The translations under genes and the position numbers were made by a program. A stretch of 64,000 nt of DNA from a virus. The first letter of the stretch is position 1. Each line of letters starts with the position of its first letter. Below the pieces are notes generated by a model that saw nothing but the letters and a program-made list of their open reading frames with translations, did not search any database and was not told where the DNA came from. Below, piece after piece: positions 2,034-47,210 of the stretch. The stretch lies in UHGV virus genome UHGV-1366990. One strand, written 5' to 3'.

Positions 2034-5000
2034 ATGCAAGAAATGAACCTCAACCGCCGCCCATATTGGGATGACTGGAATCCAGAGAAGCGTTTTTCGC
2101 GCATCCTATTCCGTCCGGCACCTATCAAAGTTCAGACGCGTGAACTGAACCAGATACAGACCATCTTCCAGGATCAACTGGAGAAACTTGGCAACCATCT
2201 GTTCAAAGACGGTTCAATGGTTATCCCCGGCGGTCTAACGATCACCAACACTGCTGTGTCCATGAAGTTCACTCTGGCTGGTGGTAGTGAGTTCACTGAT
2301 CTGGAAGGTATCTCCGAACTCTATGTTCTGGGCAAGGACAACAATGCGAAAGCACGCGTCCTGTCCTTGGAACGTTATCCAGCTGAGCCGGATACAATGT
2401 ATGCCATCTTAGAGATTACTGAAAGTGGTAGTTCAGACGGTTTCGAAGCTGGTGACAATCTATATTTCAACACCTATGACGTGAACGATAACTTCATCCG
2501 TGTCGGCTATGGTGTGGCCGATACTGTTGGCGGTTCGATTGTCGCTCGCATGACAAAGGGTGTTTATTTCGTTCGTGGTATGTTCCTGGATGTTGAACCA
2601 ACCACTTTGATCGTAGACAACGCATCGAACTCTACATCTCACCGCATTGGCTTCAAAGTTACAGAAACAATCGTGACCGAAGCAGAAGATGAAAGTCTGT
2701 TCTCCAATGCTCAGGGTACTCCGAACTCTAAAGCCCCTGGTGCGCATCGCCTGCGCGTCGACCTCGTGTTGTCTCGCTACGGTTATGATGAAGAAGTGGC
2801 CGACTTCGTTGAACTGGCGAAGGTGAAAGACGGTCGTGTTCAGTCCATGGTCACCCAGTCAACGTACAACATCCTCGAAGACGCCATGGCTCAGCGTACC
2901 TATGAGACCAACGGGGATTACAACGTCTCTACTCACCAGATCGACCTACGCGAACATCTGAAACAGAACAACAACGGTGGCGTATACACTCCGGCCGAAG
3001 GTGGCGACGAAAGCAAATTCGTGGCGGTTATGAAGCCAGGCATTTCCTACGTTCGTGGTCGTCGTATCGAAAACCTCGGCGAAGAGCTGGTCATAATTGA
3101 CAAAGCCCGTGACACTGATATCCTGAACAACAACCCTGTGGCTGTTTCGACTGGCAACTATCTGGTGTCCAAGAACTCCAAAGGGGTTCCGGTTGTCTCC
3201 CGCACAATCCGCTACAAGTTCCTGAACGCATCCAGCGATGTGCAGGCCACCGCCCTGCTGATTTCGGCAGAGCGCTCTGGTACTGAATTCCGTCTGTATA
3301 TGCGCGACCTGGTTGTGACTGGGGACATGGGTACGGTGACCAAAGTCGCTTATGAAGAAAGCGGTACAACGATGTTCTCTTGCGAACTGGAGTCCAATCA
3401 GTTCAGCCAGAGTTCAGCAATTGACCTGATCTTCCCTCTGCCTGTATTTGGTGTGAAGACTCTAGCACCTACAGGCACCATCGACATCAACTACACCGTC
3501 CTGCGGTCAAACAAGATCACGTTGAACGCCGCTGGTGCAGGCTCAATCTCTGCTCCTCTGGGTTACAGCTTCAGCCCTGAGTTTTCACTGTACTCCGCAG
3601 CGAAGGCAGATGGCACTGCAGCTCAGTTTGATATCTCTTCGGGACTGTCCCTGGCTGGTACTCCGGTTGGTTCAGCACTACAGATTTCCCTGGGCGCGGG
3701 GTACGCCAACCAGTCTATCAACCTGTTGACATTGATGGTCCGCACCACAGCGACGATCAAGACCAAGACTGTTACCGAAGCCACCGAGACTGTGACGTTT
3801 ACTGCGGCGGCCAGCGCACAACTTGGGAACCATGATGGTTACAAGCTGATCAGCGTGAAGAACGCAAATGGCGCTGATGTCACCTCTAACTTCACTCTGG
3901 ACGGCGGCCAGCGTGATGCTGCATACTACCTTTCTAACCTCATATCGTCCGCTGGAGCCATTTCAGGGACGTTCACAGTGGTGTACCAGTACTTCGCTCA
4001 CAGTTCTGGTGATTTCTTCACAGCGGACTCCTATTCGTCCATCAACTACCCAGACATCCCGAACTATGTTTCATCCAGTTCTGGTACTGTGTATGGGTTG
4101 GCCGACAGTCTGGACTTCCGTCCCAAGATCACCAGCGGAGCGTCTGACACGGACATGGTTCGCCCGAACACCGCGATCATCCTAGATGCAGAGTACTATC
4201 TGCCTCGTATTGATGCTGTGTATCTGGCAGACAACGGTGTGTTCAACGTTGCTCGTGGTGTGAGTTCCAACAACCTGGCTTCCCCTGCGATTCCAGACAA
4301 CGGTATGCGTCTGTATGAATTGATGATCCCACCATACACGGCCAACATTGACGACATCCAGATTCGTACTATCGACAACCGCCGCTACACGATGCGCGAT
4401 ATCGGTAAACTGGAGACCCGTATCTCCAATGTCGAATATTACACCTCACTGTCTCAGCTGGAATCCTCGGCGATGTCACAACAGGTATTCGATCCAATTA
4501 CTGGCAACCCGCGCTTCAAGAACGGTATCGCAGCAGACCCGTTCAAAGACTTCCGTCTGATCGACGATTTGTCTGCAGACTGGGTGGGTTCAATCGACAC
4601 TGACAATGGTCGCCTACGCCCGTTTGTTCAGCAGAACGCGATTGACCTGACGCCAGTCGGTTGGAACAACGTTCAGGATGGCATGGTTGTATGCAACTAC
4701 ACCCGTGAGATCTCTGTCCGCCAGGACTATGCAACCACGACCATCAACGTGAACCCGTATGCAGTATTCAACTGGGAAGGTTTCCTGAAACTGAACCCGA
4801 CTACTGATTACTGGTTTGAGAACTACTATGTTACTCCACGTGTGATCAACGAAACGATCAACACCCGTGGTGCGATCAAAGAAGGTTCTGTGTATGGCAC
4901 ATGGCGTACTGTGTCCGTGTCTGAGCGTGTGTGGGAACCACATGGCGCAGGTGGTGTATGGTGGGGCTATCGCTACCGCACGACTGTGTCCACCCGTGAC

Positions 5001-6872
5001 ATTACCACGTACACGTACACCGACAGGACGACCACCACCATGACTGGTGAGCAGATCGTTGAAACGCAGGTAATCCCATACATGCGCAAAACGAACATCA
5101 ACTTCGAAGCCACAGGTCTGCGTCCGTTCACTCGTGTGTATCCGTTCTTCTCTGGACGTGATGTGAGCGCGTACTGTACCCCAAACGGTGGTGTACTGGG
5201 TGGTGCGTTGAACACTGACGCCAACGGTAACATCAAAGGTGTGTTTGCGGTTCCTCAGAACGAGACTATCAAGTTTAACACGGGTGACAACGTTTTCCGT
5301 CTGACTGACAGTCCTGTGGATAGCAAGTCTGCTGATGATACCCTGACCAATGCTGAGGCTGTTCATAAGTCCTTCGGCAAGAAACAGGGCATCCAGAAGA
5401 CTTATGTCAATACTCGCGTCCTGGGATACACTGCGACCAAGTCTACGGAAAACAAAACAGAGACGGTTGAAGTCGCGAAGTGGAAAGATCCTATCGCCCA
5501 GTCCTTCATGGTTGCCACCAATATCGGCGGCGAATACATCGAAGGGATTGAAGTCTTCTTCTCCACCAAGTCCCGTGATATCCCGATCACTCTGGAAATC
5601 CGTGAGATGAGCAATGGTCTGCCAGCGACGACTGTCGTCACTCGTAAGACTCTGAATCCATCAGAAGTTTCCACCTCCACAGACTCTTCTGTGCCGACGA
5701 TGTTCAAGTTTGATTATCCTGTGTATCTGCAGGCGCAGACTGAGTTCGCGATCGTACTCCTGGCCAACACTCAGGACTACAACGCATACATCGCAGAGAT
5801 GGGCAAGAAGAACTTGCTGACCAACGAGTTCATTGCCAAACAGCCGTACACTGGCGTGTTCTTCACATCTTCAAATGGTACGACCTGGACTCCAAACCAG
5901 ACTGCCGATATGAAGTTCCGTGTATATCGCTGTAACTTCTCCGCTGGTTCAAACATCGTGACCTTCGATGCTAAAGTCGGTCCGAAGATCCGCCCTCTGG
6001 GTCTGAATACCGTGAAATGTGTCAACGGTTCTTCAACTGTTACTGTGTACGCTCCGGGGCATGGCCTGACTGCGGGTGAAAGTGTTACTCTGTCTGGGTT
6101 GACAGGTGGTTGCGGTTTCACTCCTGAGCAACTGAACGCTCAACACACTGTGACTGATGCGACGTTCACGACATTCAAATTCGTTCTGAGTTCCAACGCC
6201 GACTCCGACGGTCAGATTGGTGGTGAGGCGGCTTCTTTCCTAGGCAACTACTTGGTAGACATGTTCTACGCAAGCGTCACCAATTCAGCCCTGGAAGGAT
6301 CTGTGTTGAAACTGGAATACCGCTATCGCGATGCGACCTCCAACTCATTCTCTGATTGGGTTGAGTTCGAATCCGATACGGACGTGTCTCTGCCGACGGA
6401 AGGTATCTATCGTCAGGTGGGCGACTTCCAGGTTCGTGCAACCATGACTCGCAACGAGAGTAATGTCTACACGGCTCCAATGATCGACGGTGATGATTTC
6501 ACTATCATCTTCAACACCTACGGTGTGGATCCGTTTGAAGATGTGTTCAGCTATGTGACCAAGGATATCGGATTCGATAACCCTTGCACCACTCTGAAGC
6601 AATACTTCGGCGCGATGCTACCTTCTCAGTCTTCAATGACTGTGCAGGTTAAACTGCTACGCGCAGGTCAGGAGATGGATAACGTGGCATGGGAAACTGT
6701 GACACCGACATCCCCTCTGGTCAATGACGGTTCTGCATTCTTCGAATATGAGTATGACAAGACTGTAGACAGCACCAATCCTTTCGTTGGCCTGAAGATC
6801 CGCCTGCTGGTCAGAGGCAACCGCATAGCACCGCCGTCATTCAAAGATTTCCGTTTGATTGCTCTGGCATAA
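2034..6872 (+). CDS. large virion structural protein (about 1612 aa; tail fibre/baseplate-associated)
   Basis: ORF 1863..6872; first ATG with GGAG Shine-Dalgarno is at 2034 (MQEMNL...); position upstream of neck genes. Confidence 0.7.
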   Translation: MQEMNLNRRPYWDDWNPEKRFSRILFRPAPIKVQTRELNQIQTIFQDQLEKLGNHLFKDGSMVIPGGLTITNTAVSMKFTLAGGSEFTDLEGISELYVLGKDNNAKARVLSLERYPAEPDTMYAILEITESGSSDGFEAGDNLYFNTYDVNDNFIRVGYGVADTVGGSIVARMTKGVYFVRGMFLDVEPTTLIVDNASNSTSHRIGFKVTETIVTEAEDESLFSNAQGTPNSKAPGAHRLRVDLVLSRYGYDEEVADFVELAKVKDGRVQSMVTQSTYNILEDAMAQRTYETNGDYNVSTHQIDLREHLKQNNNGGVYTPAEGGDESKFVAVMKPGISYVRGRRIENLGEELVIIDKARDTDILNNNPVAVSTGNYLVSKNSKGVPVVSRTIRYKFLNASSDVQATALLISAERSGTEFRLYMRDLVVTGDMGTVTKVAYEESGTTMFSCELESNQFSQSSAIDLIFPLPVFGVKTLAPTGTIDINYTVLRSNKITLNAAGAGSISAPLGYSFSPEFSLYSAAKADGTAAQFDISSGLSLAGTPVGSALQISLGAGYANQSINLLTLMVRTTATIKTKTVTEATETVTFTAAASAQLGNHDGYKLISVKNANGADVTSNFTLDGGQRDAAYYLSNLISSAGAISGTFTVVYQYFAHSSGDFFTADSYSSINYPDIPNYVSSSSGTVYGLADSLDFRPKITSGASDTDMVRPNTAIILDAEYYLPRIDAVYLADNGVFNVARGVSSNNLASPAIPDNGMRLYELMIPPYTANIDDIQIRTIDNRRYTMRDIGKLETRISNVEYYTSLSQLESSAMSQQVFDPITGNPRFKNGIAADPFKDFRLIDDLSADWVGSIDTDNGRLRPFVQQNAIDLTPVGWNNVQDGMVVCNYTREISVRQDYATTTINVNPYAVFNWEGFLKLNPTTDYWFENYYVTPRVINETINTRGAIKEGSVYGTWRTVSVSERVWEPHGAGGVWWGYRYRTTVSTRDITTYTYTDRTTTTMTGEQIVETQVIPYMRKTNINFEATGLRPFTRVYPFFSGRDVSAYCTPNGGVLGGALNTDANGNIKGVFAVPQNETIKFNTGDNVFRLTDSPVDSKSADDTLTNAEAVHKSFGKKQGIQKTYVNTRVLGYTATKSTENKTETVEVAKWKDPIAQSFMVATNIGGEYIEGIEVFFSTKSRDIPITLEIREMSNGLPATTVVTRKTLNPSEVSTSTDSSVPTMFKFDYPVYLQAQTEFAIVLLANTQDYNAYIAEMGKKNLLTNEFIAKQPYTGVFFTSSNGTTWTPNQTADMKFRVYRCNFSAGSNIVTFDAKVGPKIRPLGLNTVKCVNGSSTVTVYAPGHGLTAGESVTLSGLTGGCGFTPEQLNAQHTVTDATFTTFKFVLSSNADSDGQIGGEAASFLGNYLVDMFYASVTNSALEGSVLKLEYRYRDATSNSFSDWVEFESDTDVSLPTEGIYRQVGDFQVRATMTRNESNVYTAPMIDGDDFTIIFNTYGVDPFEDVFSYVTKDIGFDNPCTTLKQYFGAMLPSQSSMTVQVKLLRAGQEMDNVAWETVTPTSPLVNDGSAFFEYEYDKTVDSTNPFVGLKIRLLVRGNRIAPPSFKDFRLIALA

Positions 6873-10592: not shown

Positions 10593-12783
10593 TGTAGAAT
10601 ACGCCCCACTCAAGACGGGGTTTAAGACAGAAGACGTCAGACTGCGTATGGACCAAACGTTCATGCGCAAGCCGTCTGTGCGCGCTCCTCGTGTGGAGTT
10701 GATGCTAACAGATGAGCAGGAATCGGAGTTCGTCGAGTGCGCGATGGACGCCCATTACTTCGCCGCCAACTACTACAAGATCACGACCATCGATAAAGGC
10801 TTCATCCTCTTTGACATGCACGATTACCAGAAGCAGTTGTTCCATGACTTCCAGGACTATCGATTCAATGCGGTCGTCCAGGCTCGTCAGTCTGGGAAAT
10901 GTGTAAAAGGTGACACGCTTGTCACAGTTTACGATACTCTCAGCCAAGAGCAGTTGCTCCTGACCATAGGGGAGCTTCACAGCCGCTTCGAGGACGTCAA
11001 TCACGCTGTGCCGCTGAATACCATTGGCAACCATGACAAGTTCGTGGACAGCCGCTTCGGCAAACGTTACTTTGTGCAATCCGATAGTGGCTGGGTTCCG
11101 GTTATCGCAGCGCATAAGACGAAGAAATATGCGGAATTCGTTATTGTGACTGTTACTGGGCGGCGAATTAACGTGGCCGACGAACATATATTCTTCACTC
11201 CGGAAATGAAGGAGATATTTGCCAAAGACCTGAATGCTGGGTCATACATCATGACGTCAGAAGGTCCAGAAGAAATCCGTGAGGTTTGGCAGACTGGTGA
11301 GACGCATCACATGTATGACCTACAGGTGAAATCTAGTGATCAGCGCTACTACACCAACGGCTTCCTCAGCCACAACACGACAGTCGTGGCAGCGTTCCTG
11401 CTCTGGTATGCGATGTTCCACTCCGACAAAGAGATCGCAGTACTGGCGAACAAAGAGAAGCAGGCGATTGAAATCCTAGATCGTATTCGCAAAGCATATC
11501 AAGATTTGCCATTCTTCCTCCAACAGGGTTGTGAGAAGTTCGGTTCCACGCTGATAGAGTTCGAAAACGGATCAAAGATCTACGCCTATGCGACATCTTC
11601 CGACTCCATCCGTGGTCGATCTGTATCGCTCCTGTATGTGGACGAAGTGGCGTTCATTGAAAACGACTTTGAATTCTGGGAGTCTACATTCCCGGCGATT
11701 GCATCTGCAGAGACTTCACGTTGTATTCTGACCAGTACGCCGAAAGGTCAGCGCGGGTTGTTCTACGACATCGTCACCAAGGCGAACCCAGAACACCCAC
11801 AATACAACGACTTCAAACTCACCGAGGTCCCATGGTATCGTGTTCCAACGTACACCAAAGATCCAGACTGGGAATCCAAACAGAGGGCGAAGCTGGGTGA
11901 TGCACGTTTCGATCAAGAATTTGGCATTAAGTTCCGTGGTTCTGTGGGATCACTGATACCTGCCAAGTGTCTGGACAAGATGACCTCGAAGCTGTATCAG
12001 GAGCCGAACGAGTTCACCAAGATTTATCACGACTACGATCCCAAACGCATCTATATGGGTATCGCAGATACAGGCAAGGGTGTCGAAGGGGATTATTCTG
12101 TACTGACCATTATCGACATCACAGACTATCCTCACAAGATCGCAGCCAAGTATCGAAATAACACGATACCTCCAATGATGTACGCGTACACAATCGCCGA
12201 TATGGGCGAGAAGTATGGAACGTGCCCGATGCTAGTCGAGACTAACAACGACGTGGGTGGTCAGGTAATCACAATTCTATACCAGGAAATTGAATATCCA
12301 GAGATCATCTTCACTACAACAGATACCAAGGGTACAGGCAAAAGAATCGGTGGTCGCCGCCCTGAGCCTGGTATCAATACCAACAAGAAGGTGCGCACAA
12401 ACGGCTGTGCCAACCTGAAAGCCCTGATTGAACGTGAAATGCTGGTGATAGATGACCAGGACACGATAGATGAACTCAGTACATTCGTATGGACTGGAAC
12501 AAGGTATGAAGCCGATGATGGTTGTCATGATGACTGTGTAATGCCCCTCGTGTTGTATGCATGGGCGGTGAAACAAGAATGGTTTAGTGATCTCACCAAT
12601 TCAAATATCTCTGTGGACATGAGAGGACGGTTGTCTGCGATGGAAGAATCTCAGATGCTACCATTTGGGGGTATGATGTCGACGCCAGATCCTCACTCTG
12701 TGGAGAACATCCCAGGGTTCGGTGGAATTCAGGTTTATGATGAACGCTCTGGTGTGTCTATGGAAGAATGGCTGAGACGGTGA
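10573..12783 (+). CDS. terL: terminase large subunit (T4 gp17-like), intein-containing
   Basis: Exteins QARQSGK + TTVVAAFLLWYAMF...ILTSTPKGQRGLFYDIV align to T4 gp17 P-loop and downstream motifs; ATG at 10573 (ORF track starts at GTG 10564). Confidence 0.9.
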   Translation: MAYQKRDVEYAPLKTGFKTEDVRLRMDQTFMRKPSVRAPRVELMLTDEQESEFVECAMDAHYFAANYYKITTIDKGFILFDMHDYQKQLFHDFQDYRFNAVVQARQSGKCVKGDTLVTVYDTLSQEQLLLTIGELHSRFEDVNHAVPLNTIGNHDKFVDSRFGKRYFVQSDSGWVPVIAAHKTKKYAEFVIVTVTGRRINVADEHIFFTPEMKEIFAKDLNAGSYIMTSEGPEEIREVWQTGETHHMYDLQVKSSDQRYYTNGFLSHNTTVVAAFLLWYAMFHSDKEIAVLANKEKQAIEILDRIRKAYQDLPFFLQQGCEKFGSTLIEFENGSKIYAYATSSDSIRGRSVSLLYVDEVAFIENDFEFWESTFPAIASAETSRCILTSTPKGQRGLFYDIVTKANPEHPQYNDFKLTEVPWYRVPTYTKDPDWESKQRAKLGDARFDQEFGIKFRGSVGSLIPAKCLDKMTSKLYQEPNEFTKIYHDYDPKRIYMGIADTGKGVEGDYSVLTIIDITDYPHKIAAKYRNNTIPPMMYAYTIADMGEKYGTCPMLVETNNDVGGQVITILYQEIEYPEIIFTTTDTKGTGKRIGGRRPEPGINTNKKVRTNGCANLKALIEREMLVIDDQDTIDELSTFVWTGTRYEADDGCHDDCVMPLVLYAWAVKQEWFSDLTNSNISVDMRGRLSAMEESQMLPFGGMMSTPDPHSVENIPGFGGIQVYDERSGVSMEEWLRR
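10900..11376 (+). mobile_element. mini-intein (159 aa) inserted in TerL Walker A
   Basis: Begins with Cys (CVKGDTLV), ends ...FLSHN followed by Thr +1; removal restores a contiguous GK-T P-loop; too short for an endonuclease domain. Confidence 0.75.
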
Positions 12784-28643: not shown

Positions 28644-29390
28644 ATGGCATCTCTCCAAGATCTACGCAAGCTGAATGACTTCGAAAACCGTCATTACACA
28701 TTCCAGCAATACGAACTTCCTCATAAGGAACTGGAGTGTGTTACGACGGAGAATGGTCGTCATTACGTTTCACCGTCTGGTGTAAAACTGACATCCGTCA
28801 CGACTATGCTGGGACGCACTGGAGATCATGAATGGCTTGAGTCTTGGAGGAAGAAGCTGGGCGCAGAGGCCGCTGATCTTGAGACCATGCGCTGTGCTGA
28901 CCGAGGGGAGAAGCTGCACCTTGCTTGTGAACTGTATCTAAAGAACCGCCCAATGAAAGAAGTGTTGGAAGCGGCTGGCGAATACATGTTCATGTTCAAG
29001 CAGCTGTTCCCTTACCTGAACAAGATGACAAAGATCTATGCTCAGGAGATCCCATTATATAGCGAGGTGCTTGGTCTTGCAGGTCGTGTAGACCTTATCG
29101 GGGTTTATGAGGGTAAACCTGCTGTCATCGACTTCAAGACATCGAACACCATGAAGACGCGGGGCATGATCGAGGATTACAGTATTCAGCTGTGCTTATA
29201 TTCGGTCATGTTCCAGCAGATGTTCGGCGTCAAGATCACCCGCCTCATCAACGTGATTGCCAACGAGTCTTCCCCTCTACCAACCGTCATTGAGTTCAAC
29301 CGTGATGACATTCTGACTAAGATGTTTGAGCGTGTTCGTCTGTATCATCGCATGGATAAAGAACAAAACGGAGTCTGGCCGGATCACTAA
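28644..29390 (+). CDS. RecB-family PD-(D/E)xK nuclease
   Basis: GRVDLIG...VIDFKTS (D...D/ExK) followed by QLCLY (QhxxY). Confidence 0.5.
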   Translation: MASLQDLRKLNDFENRHYTFQQYELPHKELECVTTENGRHYVSPSGVKLTSVTTMLGRTGDHEWLESWRKKLGAEAADLETMRCADRGEKLHLACELYLKNRPMKEVLEAAGEYMFMFKQLFPYLNKMTKIYAQEIPLYSEVLGLAGRVDLIGVYEGKPAVIDFKTSNTMKTRGMIEDYSIQLCLYSVMFQQMFGVKITRLINVIANESSPLPTVIEFNRDDILTKMFERVRLYHRMDKEQNGVWPDH

Positions 29391-29395
29391 ATACC
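29384..29395 (+). promoter_or_regulatory. late-promoter-like motif TCACTAAATACC
   Basis: 24 nt upstream of the helicase ATG at 29419. Confidence 0.4.
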
Positions 29396-29418: not shown

Positions 29419-30927
29419 ATGGCAGACATTCAGATTGTTAAGGTTAACGAAGTCCGCATGCGTTGCATCGCAGATCTTTCTATCAGGGAAGAACTTAATG
29501 ACTACTTCAAATTCGAAGACCCGAACTTCGTTCCCAACCCCTTCTCTAAATGGGACGGGGTTGTCCGCCTATTTACCAAGTCATCTGGTCTAATCGATAT
29601 CGGTCTGCTGTTTGAGGTATTTAAGTTCTGTAAGAACAACGGATACACCATTGAACTGGATCCGGCACTGAAGTACATTCAGGACATCCCAGATGAAGAA
29701 ATCCGTGAATTCATCGACAGCCTGCATCCAAAGATCCGTACCGAAAATCACGAATATATCGATGCCGAGACTCGTGACTACCAGTACGACACCATCGCCA
29801 AGGCTATGCGTCAAACCAGATGCGTCTGTGAACTGGCTACGAGTGCCGGTAAGTCCTTTATTCTGTATGTCATGGCGCGGTACTACAGGCGGCGCAGAGA
29901 AGCTCTCGAAAGTCCTCTGAAGACGCTTATCGTGGTGCCGTCAATCCACCTAGTCACTCAGCTGTACGACAACTTCGAAGAGTATGCGCATGGCAGTGAT
30001 TGGAAGCCCGTTGTTAACACCCAGCTGATTTTTGAGGGCGCGACAAAGGAGATCAGTAAACCAATCGTCATCAGCACATGGCAGGGCATTCAAGACCAGT
30101 CGAAGGAATGGTTCCACCAGTTCGGCGATATCGTGGTGGATGAAGTGCACACCTCCAAGTCTGAGAAACTGTCTTACATCCTGAACAACTGCATCTATGC
30201 CGACCAGCGCCTGGGGGTTACAGGTACGCTGGCGAACACCAAAGTTGCCGGGCTTCAGGTGGTGGCTCACTTCGGGGCGTACCATAAGATCATCACGGCT
30301 CGCGATCTTATCAATCTCGGGTACGCCACTGACATCAAAGTGAAGATGATTCAGCTGAAGCACACTCCGGCGGATGCTGTTGGTCTAGACGGGGATTATT
30401 CCAAGGAAATAGAATACCTTATTACACACCAGTCCCGCAACGAACTGATCGCCAAGATGGCACTGAATCTGAAAGGGAACGTGGCCATCATGTTCGAGCG
30501 TATTGACGCCCACATGATGGTTGTGTACGATATGCTGAGCGCAGTCAAGCCCAACGTGTTTGTCATCAACGGGGAAGTGAAGATCGAAGACCGCCGCCGC
30601 ATACAGAAAGCGATGGAGGATGGAGAAGATATCACGTTGTTGGCTTCATACGGGACAATGCAACAGGGTGTGTCAATCAAGAAGCTACACCACCTTGTAC
30701 TGGCACACCCGAGCAAGTCATATATCCGTGTCATACAGACATTGGGTCGTCTGATGCGTCAGCACTCCTCTAAGGACGTCGCGTGGATATGGGACTTAGT
30801 GGATGATGCATCGTACAACGCCAGCACGAACCACGCTCTCAGGCACTCTCATGAACGTTACAAGTTTTACCTGGCAGAGCGCCACCCCGTGGAGTTCATG
30901 AAGGTGGCGCTGGGCAATCACGATTAA
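29419..30927 (+). CDS. SF2 DNA helicase (DExH)
   Basis: Walker A ATSAGKS, Walker B VVDEVH, C-terminal helicase motifs; ATG is residue 32 of ORF 29326. Confidence 0.8.
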   Translation: MADIQIVKVNEVRMRCIADLSIREELNDYFKFEDPNFVPNPFSKWDGVVRLFTKSSGLIDIGLLFEVFKFCKNNGYTIELDPALKYIQDIPDEEIREFIDSLHPKIRTENHEYIDAETRDYQYDTIAKAMRQTRCVCELATSAGKSFILYVMARYYRRRREALESPLKTLIVVPSIHLVTQLYDNFEEYAHGSDWKPVVNTQLIFEGATKEISKPIVISTWQGIQDQSKEWFHQFGDIVVDEVHTSKSEKLSYILNNCIYADQRLGVTGTLANTKVAGLQVVAHFGAYHKIITARDLINLGYATDIKVKMIQLKHTPADAVGLDGDYSKEIEYLITHQSRNELIAKMALNLKGNVAIMFERIDAHMMVVYDMLSAVKPNVFVINGEVKIEDRRRIQKAMEDGEDITLLASYGTMQQGVSIKKLHHLVLAHPSKSYIRVIQTLGRLMRQHSSKDVAWIWDLVDDASYNASTNHALRHSHERYKFYLAERHPVEFMKVALGNHD

Positions 30928-31295
30928 TCTTGATTCACATAGGCGGGGGTGGCCTCGCCTTCATCAGTTACTACGCCGAACAATTTATCCAGAGAAGCCA
31001 GACATTGTGAGTTTAGGTGTTCACTGATCGTATCCTTCAGCATTTCTTCGCTGCCCAATTTGAATGGCAGAACTTTCGCTTCGATGCCGTTTTCAAACGT
31101 CACCACACCGACATACAGACCAACTTTCAGACCTGTCATCAAACCCAGAGGGACAAATCGCGGCTCCGATGGTAAGTTCTTGTCTGACGCCAGCTGTGTC
31201 AGATAAACCGGGGTGCCTGTGATAAATTGACCTGTGGTGAGGTTGGCGTCTGGCTTACTACACCCGACTGCGTATAATCCTACGAACTGTTTCAT
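30924..31295 (-). CDS. hypothetical protein (123 aa)
   Basis: Protein-like minus ORF; the overlapping + ORF 30949..31206 is Ser/Arg/Pro-rich junk; convergent with the helicase. Confidence 0.5.
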   Translation of the reverse strand: MKQFVGLYAVGCSKPDANLTTGQFITGTPVYLTQLASDKNLPSEPRFVPLGLMTGLKVGLYVGVVTFENGIEAKVLPFKLGSEEMLKDTISEHLNSQCLASLDKLFGVVTDEGEATPAYVNQD

Positions 31296-31480
31296 ATATT
31301 ACTCTCGTGTGTTGGTTAACATGACATACATATTATTTCGCGTGCATGTTTAGACCAAATAAATTAATTTTGCTGTTGAATAAAAACTGCTTTCTTGTTG
31401 AACAACGGCGTGGTATTATACGAGTTGTGAGCGTTAGCGAACAACGAGTATTTGTTTTATGAGCGAAGCGAATAGGATTA

Positions 31481-31549
31481 ATAAAGATTATTATCTTTAA
31501 TAAAGGTTATTATCTTTAATAAAGTCCATAAATGCCGAAGGCATTTATT
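31481..31549. repeat. tandem direct repeats (TTATTATCTTTAATAAAG x2) plus perfect 8-3-8 palindrome TAAATGCC-GAA-GGCATTTA
   Basis: Read directly in the 360-nt AT-rich divergent intergenic region; operator- or origin-like architecture. Confidence 0.6.
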
Positions 31550-31656
31550 AATAACGCGTAGCGCAATTTGCCACTTGTTCTATAAGCAAAACACAGCGAT
31601 ACTAGATTTCGTCAAACATGACTTGAACCCCCACTATATTTTGAGGATACATACAA

Positions 31657-32325
31657 ATGCAAGAGATCACTCTCTCCGAACGTACACTTCAGTTGCTGGC
31701 CAACTTTGAGACCATCAACCCATCTATCGTTCTGACACCGGGCAAGATGCTGCGCAGTATTAATGATTCTTCTACTGTGATCGCCGTGGCGCAGATCGAA
31801 GAAGACTTCCCGTTTGAGTTCCCGATTCTGGACCTGACCAAACTTCTGGCCATCCAGCGCCTACCTTCCTTCAAAGGTGCCAAAGCCGAATTCCATCAGG
31901 ACTACATCCTGTTGAAAGGCGAAAGCTCTCAGCTGCAATTCTGGCGTTCTGCTAAAGAACTCACTGTTGTTCCGGCTGACACCATTGAACTGCCGTCTGT
32001 TGACTTTGAAGCGATCATCACTCCAGAGAAGATGAAAGAACTGACCCGCGCCTGCTCTACCCTCGGACACAAGACTGTGCGTCTGGTTGCTCAGGGTGGC
32101 AAAACTCGCCTGGTTGCAACCACCACTACCCTGGACAACTCCAACAACTACACTGTTGAGCTGGGCGAAACCGCGCTGCCGGACTTCGTAATGCCGCTGG
32201 ATGTTGCCAACCTGAAAATGATCGAAGGCAACTACACTCTGCGTGCATGTGCTGATCTACAGATGGTGAACTTCCAATCATCAGACGCGACGATCAATTA
32301 CTTCGTCGGCGCACAGATTGAGTAA
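31657..32325 (+). CDS. sliding clamp (T4 gp45-like)
   Basis: N-terminus LQLLANFETINPSIVL resembles recalled T4 gp45 LLKNFATINSGIML; followed by clamp loader as in T4. Confidence 0.8.
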   Translation: MQEITLSERTLQLLANFETINPSIVLTPGKMLRSINDSSTVIAVAQIEEDFPFEFPILDLTKLLAIQRLPSFKGAKAEFHQDYILLKGESSQLQFWRSAKELTVVPADTIELPSVDFEAIITPEKMKELTRACSTLGHKTVRLVAQGGKTRLVATTTTLDNSNNYTVELGETALPDFVMPLDVANLKMIEGNYTLRACADLQMVNFQSSDATINYFVGAQIE

Positions 32326-32405
32326 TCAATCTCCAGCCTGATGCTATAATGTGTGGGCGGGGCGTTCCCCGCCTATTTGAAATGATTCTTCTACACGAGG
32401 CTGAA

Positions 32406-33395
32406 ATGTCTAATATCACTATCGTTTCCGACCAGTACGCATGGGAAAACAAGTACCGCCCTGACAACCTGGACGAGATTATCATCCCTCAAGACGTCCG
32501 CGCTAAAATCCATGGCTACATCACCAGCGGTAACGGCAACATCCCGTCTATGCTGTTCTACTCCCCTCAGCCTGGTACTGGCAAGACTACCTCCGCCCTG
32601 GCCGTGTGTAATGAAATCGGTTGTAAGCAACCACTGATGATCAACGCATCCCTGGACAACAGCATCGACGTTATCCGTGACCGCGTGATTCAGTACTCTA
32701 CTGGTGTGAGCGTATTCGGTGGCCGCAAAGTCGTTATCCTCGACGAAGTAGAGCGTCTGTCTATGGCGGCACAGGAGTCGCTGAAGGGTATTGTGGAGAA
32801 GGTCTCCAAGAACTGTTCATTCATCCTGACCACCAACGCCAAGCAACGTGTGAACGAACCTCTGCGCTCTCGTTGCCGTGAAATCGACTTTATCTGGAAT
32901 GAGACCGAGGCTGATGAGGTCAAACTTCAGTTCATGCGCCGCTGTGCTGAAATCCTTCGCTGCGAAGGTGTTGAGTATGACCCTCCTGTGTTGGCTGCTA
33001 TTGTCAAGCGCCATTTCCCTGATAACCGCCGCATCATGGGTGTTCTACAGGATAACGTCACCACTTACGGCAAGATCGACGAACGTGCACTGGCTGTGTT
33101 AAAATCGGCCGATATGGGCATGTTGGTGAATATGTTGAAGGATAATGACTGGGCTGGGATGAAGCAGTGGGTGACCGACAACCAGAACTATATCACTGAA
33201 GACTTCTATTCCCGCTTCTTCCAGTTCTGTGTACCACAGGATAAAGAGAAGCAAATGTTGGTCCAGAATGAGTCTATCCCTGATCTGGTATGCGTGTGTG
33301 GTCAGTCTCAGATTGAACACCGTCAAGTCGGCGATGTCTGGCTGCATGCTGTGTTTTTCCTGACCAATGTCATGCTCAACATCAAGTGGAAGTGA
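32406..33395 (+). CDS. clamp loader large subunit (T4 gp44-like AAA+)
   Basis: ENKYRP, SPQPGTGKTT Walker A, ILDEVE Walker B, SRC motif; ATG at 32406 after GAGG. Confidence 0.9.
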   Translation: MSNITIVSDQYAWENKYRPDNLDEIIIPQDVRAKIHGYITSGNGNIPSMLFYSPQPGTGKTTSALAVCNEIGCKQPLMINASLDNSIDVIRDRVIQYSTGVSVFGGRKVVILDEVERLSMAAQESLKGIVEKVSKNCSFILTTNAKQRVNEPLRSRCREIDFIWNETEADEVKLQFMRRCAEILRCEGVEYDPPVLAAIVKRHFPDNRRIMGVLQDNVTTYGKIDERALAVLKSADMGMLVNMLKDNDWAGMKQWVTDNQNYITEDFYSRFFQFCVPQDKEKQMLVQNESIPDLVCVCGQSQIEHRQVGDVWLHAVFFLTNVMLNIKWK

Positions 33396-46343: not shown

Positions 46344-47210
46344 ATGCTCCTGACCAAAACAATCGCTGCGGCGATTATCGAAAAGAATAAGGCTTTTGCC
46401 CCCAACGCAGCCAAAGTTATGTTGGTACACGAAGACGCTCGCGTGATCTTCGCCGAGAAGTTCGAGATGGGTGCGAAGTTCTGGTATGCCGACAACTTAC
46501 GTGAGAGCAAACTTCAGGGTATCATCCACAAACTGACTCTGGTCGCCAAGCGTAATGACCAGGGTGACTGGGTCGGCGTTTCTGACTTCAGTACGAAGAT
46601 CACCCCAAAGGCTCCGCTTTCTCGTCAAGAGCGCATTCTGGAAGCCCAGGAAAAGCTGCGTGCGGCTCGGAGTACCACAAAGGCGAAACCAGATACAAGC
46701 CCTGTCATCAAGCCAGCGGTTGTTCCTAAGTCCAAATACCTCCCACCCGTGAGTCAAAAGGCTGTGGAGCAATTGGTTGAGAAGCGCAAGGGTGACGTTG
46801 TGATGAAGTCTGACTCTTCAGTGGAGCCGTTCAAGCCGGATCCAGCAGAAGTACAGGCGCTGGCAGAAAAGGTAAAGAATTCACAATTCATTTCCCTGCG
46901 TGAACTTGAACCGCCTACTCGCCGTCGTATCGCCAACGAGCTGTTTGTGTCGTTCAGGTCGGATGGTAAGATCATCCTGTGCAAAGCCCTGCGCGATGCA
47001 ATCCCTTGGACAACTCTGAACATGATGGTCACTCGCGACTTCAAGCGTTTTGGTATCATGCAAGGCAAGGACTACAACGTCAACCAGAGCGGGACTTATG
47101 TTAATCGCGCCATGTGTGACAAACTGACCTTCCCAGAAGATACCGGAACGATCCGTGTCGTTCTGAATTGGGACGACAAGCTGAACATGTATGTTGGCGA
47201 TTTCCAATAA
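46344..47210 (+). CDS. hypothetical protein (288 aa)
   Basis: ATG one codon after GTG 46341; Lys/Pro-rich central linker. Confidence 0.55.
   Translation: MLLTKTIAAAIIEKNKAFAPNAAKVMLVHEDARVIFAEKFEMGAKFWYADNLRESKLQGIIHKLTLVAKRNDQGDWVGVSDFSTKITPKAPLSRQERILEAQEKLRAARSTTKAKPDTSPVIKPAVVPKSKYLPPVSQKAVEQLVEKRKGDVVMKSDSSVEPFKPDPAEVQALAEKVKNSQFISLRELEPPTRRRIANELFVSFRSDGKIILCKALRDAIPWTTLNMMVTRDFKRFGIMQGKDYNVNQSGTYVNRAMCDKLTFPEDTGTIRVVLNWDDKLNMYVGDFQ

Follow-up and report, generated by a model that had tools for sequence, protein, structure and literature searches.

A slippage-prone tandem repeat appears to be the variable part of a conserved control region upstream of the sliding-clamp gene in Ackermannviridae phages

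The primary replication origin of bacteriophage T7 consists of a promoter followed by an A+T-rich stretch that is unwound, and the same layout is seen at oriF (uvsY) and oriG (gene 34) of phage T4, where a MotA-dependent promoter points into some 50 bp of A+T-rich DNA that serve as unwinding element. A further T4 origin, oriE, carries 12-nt iterons that related phages retain at the syntenic positions. Leader RNA elements of two hairpins lie downstream of early promoters in phages lambda (nut) and HK022 (put), and T4-type phages are said to harbor PeSL, repeated promoter-plus-stem-loop cassettes reportedly described by Arbiol and colleagues in 2010. On the side of single-stranded DNA, mini-hairpins of the types GCGNAGC, GCGNNAGC, and CCGAAGG are found at the complementary-strand origins of G4, St-1, and alpha3, in ssiA of RSF1010, and in the N4 virion-polymerase promoters (PMC13037366); the RNA forms of such hairpins are much less stable (Kimoto and Hirao 2026, PMC13037366). 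Phages of the family Ackermannviridae are widely proposed for the biocontrol of Salmonella, E. coli O157, Klebsiella, and Dickeya, and a search of the accessible literature returned neither transcriptome or origin mapping for this family nor any experimentally mapped origin, promoter, or regulatory RNA.

Here we describe the gap between a minus-strand gene and the sliding-clamp gene in a 64-kb stretch of viral DNA (UHGV-1366990, hereafter the window), in which an initial annotation had singled out a tandem repeat and a palindrome. Comparison with relatives suggests that, within a conserved control region, these two elements make up the part that varies between strains or clades. In themselves they are ordinary, and it is the surrounding cassette, composed of a predicted promoter, two hairpins (H1 and H2), an A+T-rich module that holds the repeat (hairpin H3, duplicated) and the palindrome (H4), and a CGCG box, that appears to be undescribed: the AG3 and LIMEstone papers contain no annotation of it and we found no description in the searchable literature. 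Present in three copies with covarying hairpins, it marks three precise sites for early transcription, RNA function, or replication initiation.

The cassette resembles nut, put, and PeSL in its few copies per genome, its position just after an early-type promoter, and its conserved sense-strand hairpins. Those elements, however, offer no sequence or structure match to its tandem G.A motifs and GNA loops, and the cassettes occupy fixed orthologous sites instead of flanking variable genes. The mini-hairpin systems are matched at the level of individual loops, namely by the H1 apex GCGTTAGC (as in St-1 and alpha3), the CCGAAGG of H4 (as in ssiA), the GCGAAGC of H2, and, for the N4 promoters, by the GCGGAGC of H1 in Serratia phage 3M. 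They operate on genomes or plasmid strands that are single-stranded, and the primases or polymerases involved are known, whereas the genome that carries the cassette is double-stranded, and the H1 of Kuttervirus and Taipeivirus has a TTT loop. With the iterons of T4 oriE the cassette shares short, evenly spaced direct repeats in an intergenic position beside replication or late genes; unlike the conserved T4 iterons, its repeat varies and is absent from other genera.

The 3 kb around the gap are 98% identical to Escherichia phages vB_EcoM-ZQ1, RPN242, and LHE287 and 95-96% identical to Shigella phage Ag3, and weaker similarity reaches the genera Limestonevirus, Kuttervirus, Taipeivirus, Miltonvirus, and Nezavisimistyvirus, all of them Ackermannviridae; the window comes from an Agtrevirus-like member of that family. 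The genes run in the order uvsW (+), a 123-aa ORF (-), the gap, the gp45 clamp gene, gp44, gp62, and regA, and the phage encodes both UvsW and RNase HI. A Pfam search of the 123-aa ORF detected no domain, and the phrog to which it belongs has no assigned function. Its 3' end overlaps that of the convergent uvsW by 4 nt (30924-30927), which leaves no space for a terminator between the two. The A+T-richness noted at the outset holds (33-39% G+C in the gap vs ~50% in the flanks), over a length one nucleotide greater than the 360 first given. Coordinates of all features are collected in Table 1.

Table 1. Features of the gap upstream of the clamp gene and of its minus-strand neighbor (positions in the window; promoters are predictions).
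Feature	Position	Strand	Details
123-aa ORF	30924-31295	-	phrog_4255
Gap	31296-31656		361 nt between 123-aa ORF (-) and clamp gene (+)
Minus-strand ORF promoter (predicted, sigma-70-type)	31330-31358	-	-35 TTGGTC 31358-31353, 17-nt spacer, -10 TAATAT 31335-31330
Cassette promoter (predicted)	31382-31419	+	A-tract 31382-31386, -35 TTTCTT 31391-31396, 17-nt spacer, TG 31411-31412, -10 TATTAT 31414-31419
Hairpin H1, TAC-GA-GTTGT-GA-GC-[GTTA]-GC-GA-ACAAC-GA-GTA	31419-31450	+	Two tandem G.A/A.G motifs
Hairpin H2, GTTTTAT-GA-GC-[GAA]-GC-GA-ATAGGAT	31454-31478	+	Core GAGCGAAGCGA 31461-31471, contains GCGAAGC
A+T-rich module	31476-31554		79% A+T; contains repeat and palindrome
19-nt tandem repeat (hairpin H3, duplicated)	31478-31524		Tandem Repeats Finder: period 19, 2.5 copies, 96% matches
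Perfect palindrome H4, ATAAATGCC-GAA-GGCATTTAT	31528-31548		9-bp arms, 3-nt loop; core CCGAAGG
CGCG box	31555-31561	+	CGCGTAG here; CGCGCGAG in most other copies
Proximal clamp promoter (predicted)	31575-31603	+	-35 TTGTTC 31575-31580, 17-nt spacer, -10 GATACT 31598-31603
Clamp leader and translation initiation region, GCGTCAAACATGACTTGAACCCCCACTATATTTTGAGGATACATACAAATG	31608-31659	+	Nearly invariant in four genera

Against Kuttervirus, the gap retains 76.7-78.5% identity, a level equal to that of the clamp coding sequence (77%) and far above that of the adjoining ORF (59%), and the alignments point to a control region that is kept in all six Ackermannviridae genera sampled. The gap is also one of three paralogous cassettes of ~360 bp wherever all three sites could be examined. 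The H2 core stands upstream of gp45, gp5, and gp6 in the Serratia 3M, phiMAM1, and Erwinia phiEa2809-like genomes, and three cassettes are likewise present in Ag3 and in LHE287, whose whole genome was scanned and where the cassette gaps measure 361, 363, and 365 nt (gp5 gap at 10918-11280, gp6 gap at 46753-47117). Kuttervirus EP75 has a gp6 copy besides its clamp copy, and the window holds the clamp cassette only. Hairpin H1 is shared by the clamp and gp6 copies and H2 by all copies, while those before gp5 and gp6 have in common a GGAATGG linker and two extra conserved hairpins, GCC-TCCAT-GGC and CTGCCC-GCATA-GGGCGG, with U-A to C-G exchanges. In every copy H2 is followed by an A+T-rich stretch, next to which most have a CGCG(CG)AG box; after the box comes the downstream gene's own promoter, represented before gp5 and gp6 by a late motif.

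That motif, YTAAATAYC, is likely the late-promoter motif of this phage group. It occurs eight times in the window vs 1.04 expected, with + strand sites at 1992, 8504, 12787, 26190, 29387 (29387-29395, before uvsW), 56924, and 57510, and genome-wide such motifs lie 8-74 nt, typically 20-45 nt, upstream of an ATG. A search of the clamp gap for the exact motif found none.

What the clamp gap does carry, by prediction, is two or three conserved sigma-70-type promoters. The divergent promoters proposed in the initial annotation are thereby corroborated as predictions, since -35/-10-like blocks with 17-nt variable spacers are kept across genera on both strands. On the minus strand TGTTTAGACCAA is invariant in the alignments, and the -10 reads TAATAT in Agtrevirus and TATTAT in both Kuttervirus and Taipeivirus, with a spacer of constant length and varying sequence. 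The proximal clamp promoter shows the same pattern of a spacer fixed in length and free in sequence, between a nearly invariant CACTTGTTCTATA (1-2 substitutions in 3 of 19 sequences) and an invariant GCGATACTA. The predicted cassette promoter has a layout (A-tract, then TTTYYW or TTGGAC or AGGTCA, then 17 nt and TAnnnT) that recurs in 14 of 16 cassette copies from six genera; the clamp copies of Ag3 and of the Dickeya phages, with an 18-nt spacer, are not matched by it. Across the 149-kb genome of LHE287 this pattern hits exactly the three cassettes, where 0.27 matches are expected by chance. Neither promoters nor terminators are annotated in the clamp gap by the AG3 paper. The CGCG of the box is invariant in alignments of the clamp copies and follows the A+T-rich module in most copies, the box being missing from the gp5 copies of LHE287 and Ag3.

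Several smaller elements lie in or near these promoters. The palindrome TTGTTGAACAA (31395-31405) falls within the spacer of the cassette promoter and a similar CTGTTGAATAA lies 22 nt upstream (31373-31383); both are conserved in four genera and might represent an operator peculiar to the clamp copy. Three other candidates were rejected. A T4 MotA box is suggested by TGCTTTC, which is present but stands 19 nt from the -10, not 11-13 nt. The TTGTGAGCG at 31425-31433 equals the left half of E. coli lacO1, with a different right half and spacing; in view of that spacing, and of an equal degree of conservation in Kuttervirus phages that were isolated on Salmonella, the resemblance is probably a coincidence. 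The sequence is also kept in phages whose hosts have no LacI. A 13-aa ORF beginning ATGAGCGAAGCG... has its ATG changed to ACG in Kuttervirus and Taipeivirus.

The two hairpins H1 and H2 are supported by compensatory changes, and RNAalifold predicted exactly these, and nothing else, from nine orthologues. H1 folds singly at -11.2 kcal/mol, and over 14 orthologous and paralogous copies, a sample partly picked by a filter that requires pairing, which weighs against the count, 96.9% of its cells are paired and all seven of its seven pairs have changed on both sides; none of 500 shuffles equaled this and slid controls came nowhere near. The core of H2 is invariant in all genera sampled, its closing pair changes from U-A to C-G, and in the gp6 copies its apex is swapped for an extra stem (GAGC-GAGGG...CCCTC-GCGA). 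Both hairpins combine tandem G.A/A.G steps in a YGAR context with a two-pair G-C cap, and in the Serratia and Erwinia phages the stems are lengthened by matched insertions. The structure is specific to the + strand, because the G.A and G.U pairs work only there: the G.U pairs of H1 exist on that strand alone, and the + strand folds as RNA at -37.4 kcal/mol (z -4.4) vs -23.9 kcal/mol (z -2.8) for the minus strand. Folding with DNA parameters, which do not model G.A mini-hairpins, gave no strand asymmetry. H1 and H2 thus display the two general marks of a structured RNA or single strand, compensatory changes and strand specificity; a palindrome or cruciform of duplex DNA was rejected for them, the G.A and G.U pairs becoming C.T and C.A on the other strand.

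In the window, the apices of H1 (GCGTTAGC), H2 (GCGAAGC), and H4 (CCGAAGG) all obey the DNA mini-hairpin rule of a C-G closing pair and a G...A loop. Family-wide, H2 fits it nearly always and H1 in about half of the copies, the TTT loops of Kuttervirus and Taipeivirus being among those that break it. Searched against Rfam, the clamp and gp6 cassettes gave no match with E<1 and none near a gathering score; at the gp5 locus one match had E<1, to RsmY (E=0.04, 17.5 vs 57 bits), which lies off the cassette on the terminator of the upstream gene.

We favor, with roughly even confidence, the reading that the cassette is an early-promoter-driven non-coding structured unit or a long clamp-operon leader, in which H1 and H2 would be single-stranded + strand signals and the repeat a slippage-prone spacer. 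This preference arises because repeat copy number varies while H1 and H2 covary and are + strand specific, because the predicted promoter is unique to the three cassettes, because the gap is as conserved as the clamp gene and recurs as three cassettes per genome, and because H1 of the paralogues lies 13-27 nt past the -10 and so fully inside the predicted transcript. We infer from these properties that a sigma-70-type promoter of the cassette's own drives its transcription and that H1 and H2 act in single-stranded form. Host RNA polymerase would initiate at the cassette promoter early in infection; H1 and H2 would fold in the nascent + strand RNA and/or in the displaced non-template DNA and serve as a sequence-specific signal. 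Transcription would then pass the AU-rich stretch, where H3 and H4 could in this clade provide a leaky pause or a 3'-stabilizing hairpin, and read-through would merge with the clamp-operon mRNA from the proximal promoter. The repeat units would have no sequence-specific role and would merely lengthen and destabilize the spacer.

Some features speak against a purely RNA-based role. The -10 of the clamp copy borders directly on H1, and an RNA starting about 7 nt downstream would therefore lose the lower H1 stem, and the loops GAA, GTA, GTTA, and GTCA with C-G closing pairs fit the DNA mini-hairpin rule. An early leader, moreover, has no obvious purpose before the late promoters of gp5 and gp6, and H4, which lacks a U-tract on the + strand and is missing in three genera, argues against a family-wide RNA 3' end at this point.

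These features bear on a second explanation, unlikely in our view yet deserving real weight, namely that replication starts at all three cassettes in the manner of T4 oriF/oriG or of T7. The transcript from the promoter would form a persistent R-loop in the A+T-rich unwinding element, its 3' end would prime the leading strand, H1, H2, and H4 of the + strand, on the displaced non-template strand, would hold it open or recruit a primosome, and extra 19-mers would simply enlarge the unwinding element. As in oriF and oriG, a promoter (here predicted, and not of the T4 MotA type) is directed into an A+T-rich stretch whose sequence is not conserved and which, in the clamp copy, would be easily unwound, and the element exists in several copies per genome, some before late genes or at strand switches. 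The A+T content of the module is 74-89% in all genera, only this composition and its rough length being conserved family-wide, and across the 149-kb genome of LHE287 the module of the clamp copy ranks lowest or second lowest in duplex stability at lengths of 40-80 bp. The cassette promoter is confined to the cassettes; the early-type promoters before the late genes gp5 and gp6 would gain a purpose that is otherwise not obvious; cumulative GC skew reaches its global minimum at the gp6 cassette, which also coincides with a strand switch; the apices of H1, H2, and H4 are mini-hairpins of the kind reported at the St-1/alpha3 complementary-strand origins and RSF1010 ssiA; and UvsW and RNase HI are both encoded by the phage.

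Several observations speak against this model. The clamp copy fits a ~50-bp unwinding element, but the A+T-rich stretches after H2 in the gp5 and gp6 copies span only 20-30 nt and are not unusually unstable, and, unlike in T4, two conserved hairpins intervene between the promoter and the A+T-rich stretch. The TTT loop of H1 in Kuttervirus and Taipeivirus violates the mini-hairpin rule, all copies point to the downstream gene, as would suit a transcriptional role, and the clamp cassette lies off any turning point of the GC skew, which follows gene orientation and places only the gp6 cassette at an extreme. The case for an origin made in the initial annotation, for its part, had relied on the repeats and the palindrome, which are the non-conserved parts. 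We nevertheless retain an origin as a serious minority explanation because the -10 abuts H1, the loops are of the DNA type, early promoters precede late genes, and T4 provides a precedent. In an extended form, which we regard as rather doubtful, the cassettes would be Ackermannviridae replication origins at which the RNA 3' end doubles as leading-strand primer and as a clamp-loading site that activates the adjacent gp5 and gp6 late promoters; both roles would follow from the polarity of this end toward the downstream gene, which is that of a nick in the non-transcribed strand. It is to the same degree doubtful that, as this form would have it, the early RNA stays hybridized in the module while the G.A mini-hairpins of the + strand fold on the displaced strand.

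Within the module, folding energies beat those of shuffled sequences only in Agtrevirus, Limestonevirus, and Kuttervirus (z -3.3 to -5.0), with z about 0 elsewhere, so that in this test no family-wide structure was detected for H3 or H4. The perfect palindrome flagged in the initial annotation is borne out as H4, with a fold energy of -8.3 kcal/mol, and by its distribution it is a clade-specific hairpin at the end of the A+T-rich module: its arms are invariant in Agtrevirus, Limestonevirus, and Kuttervirus around a loop of GAA or GTCA, and it is missing from Taipeivirus, Miltonvirus, and Nezavisimistyvirus. The window has nine perfect hairpins whose arms are 9 bp or longer vs 1.05 +/- 1.16 in shuffles (about ninefold), the others being mostly G+C-rich terminators or lying within genes.

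There is a small chance that H4 stops transcription in both directions, or that it forms two weak late promoters placed back to back, and so insulates the divergent units, with the repeat incidental. In a terminator scan H4 passed in the minus-strand orientation only; on the + strand, with three G-C pairs out of nine and the tail UAAUAACG lacking a U-tract, it does not have the form of an intrinsic terminator, and it is weaker than all terminators of the AG3 paper (-10.4 to -22.9 kcal/mol). For an insulator, moreover, no minus-strand gene lies upstream for ~7 kb. The idea of late promoters draws on the arm CATAAATGCC, which is one base off the gp5 late promoter CATAAATACC, and on its Kuttervirus version TATAAATG, which resembles TATAAATA of T4, but the distances to the ATG would be 121 and 245 nt, well outside the usual range given above, and the exact motif is absent from the gap.

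The tandem repeat itself is real and has the period of 19 nt first assigned to it, although the unit quoted at that time is an 18-mer, found exactly twice (31488-31505 and 31507-31524; 0.02 expected by chance) and, upon searching, nowhere else in the window, and the array comprises 2.5 copies. The internal dyad AAAGAT-TATT-ATCTTT that had been ascribed to each repeat is perfect in unit 1 and contains a G.T in unit 2. In composition, the array consists of three 9-mers TTAATAAAG interleaved with the 10-mers ATTATTATCT and GTTATTATCT, and Tandem Repeats Finder reports it as one array. Among phages that are ~90-98% identical across the locus, copy number takes three values: 1.5 copies, or one 19-mer plus the flanking 9-mer, in AV101, fGh-Ecl02, EspM4VN, SW16-7, Ag3, and the Dickeya phages; 2.5 copies in the window, YX22, and LHE287; and 3.5 copies in A221. 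The single-copy form is one imperfect hairpin between two 9-nt direct repeats, an obvious slippage substrate, and this single imperfect hairpin would seem to be the ancestral state. Nowhere in the gap do the alignments show lower conservation than at the repeat stretch, whose position is taken up by unrelated A+T-rich sequence in Kuttervirus, Taipeivirus, Miltonvirus, and Nezavisimistyvirus.

The module appears prone to slippage in more than one lineage, because in Serratia phage IME250 it contains a tandem duplication of 8 nt (TATTTGAG twice) that is of independent origin. Comparative data thus present the 19-mer array as, in all appearance, a small A+T-rich hairpin whose copy number varies through slippage. 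Such a strain-level length polymorphism is possibly useful for strain typing and is not a conserved signal. The notion that the repeats are clustered protein-binding sites is not supported, given this variation in copy number among close phages and the unrelated sequence in other genera, and the expectation that they would be conserved in relatives fails on the same grounds; an iteron or operator array would have at least three even repeats whose number and sequence are kept in relatives, which is not what is seen here. That the 19-mers are iteron-like or operator-like duplex sites for a phage DNA-binding protein (such as an initiator or the HU-like one), with the palindrome as a dimer operator, is therefore highly improbable. 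This holds despite the exactness, even spacing, and internal symmetry of the repeats, the iterons of T4 oriE, and the invariance of the palindrome arms in three genera, because near-identical phages have 1.5-3.5 units derived from one imperfect hairpin, four genera have unrelated sequence, the motif recurs nowhere in 64 kb, and a loop change from GAA to GTCA would shift the half-site spacing.

Recurrence in the window was sought for the 19-mer, the palindrome, TATACGAGTTGTGAGC, and CACTATATTTTGAGG, and none was found. A different motif, TTGTTGAAYAA, is enriched in the window (11 sites vs 3.2 expected), its sites being scattered. Pattern scans of IMG/VR gave matches of which about half were chance hits in unrelated contigs, as expected for 15-17-mers, and these were discarded. 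The hairpin core CGAGCGAAGCGAGTGAT is present in unrelated IMG/VR viral contigs (sites at ~5772-5900, ~8361, and ~7865), where one occurrence precedes two iteron-like attttaacattttttaacatttgag repeats, another is in tandem, and a third lies within a palindrome with 17-bp arms; these occurrences may be meaningless, since by a rough estimate ~20 chance matches are expected.

Further downstream, the junction between the clamp and clamp-loader genes (32341-32378) has TGCTATAAT, an extended -10, followed by a G+C-rich hairpin, GGGCGGGGCGTTCCCCGCC TATTT, which corresponds to terminator Torf165 of the AG3 paper. The clamp-loader ORF called by the program runs from 32349, and the annotated start lies further downstream, at the ATG at 32406. 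In YX22 (3908-4564), PC3, PH4, and SW16-7 (2386-3042), an extra ORF of 657 bp, absent from the window, is inserted between these two genes, and we suspect that it is a mobile gene of the homing-endonuclease type.
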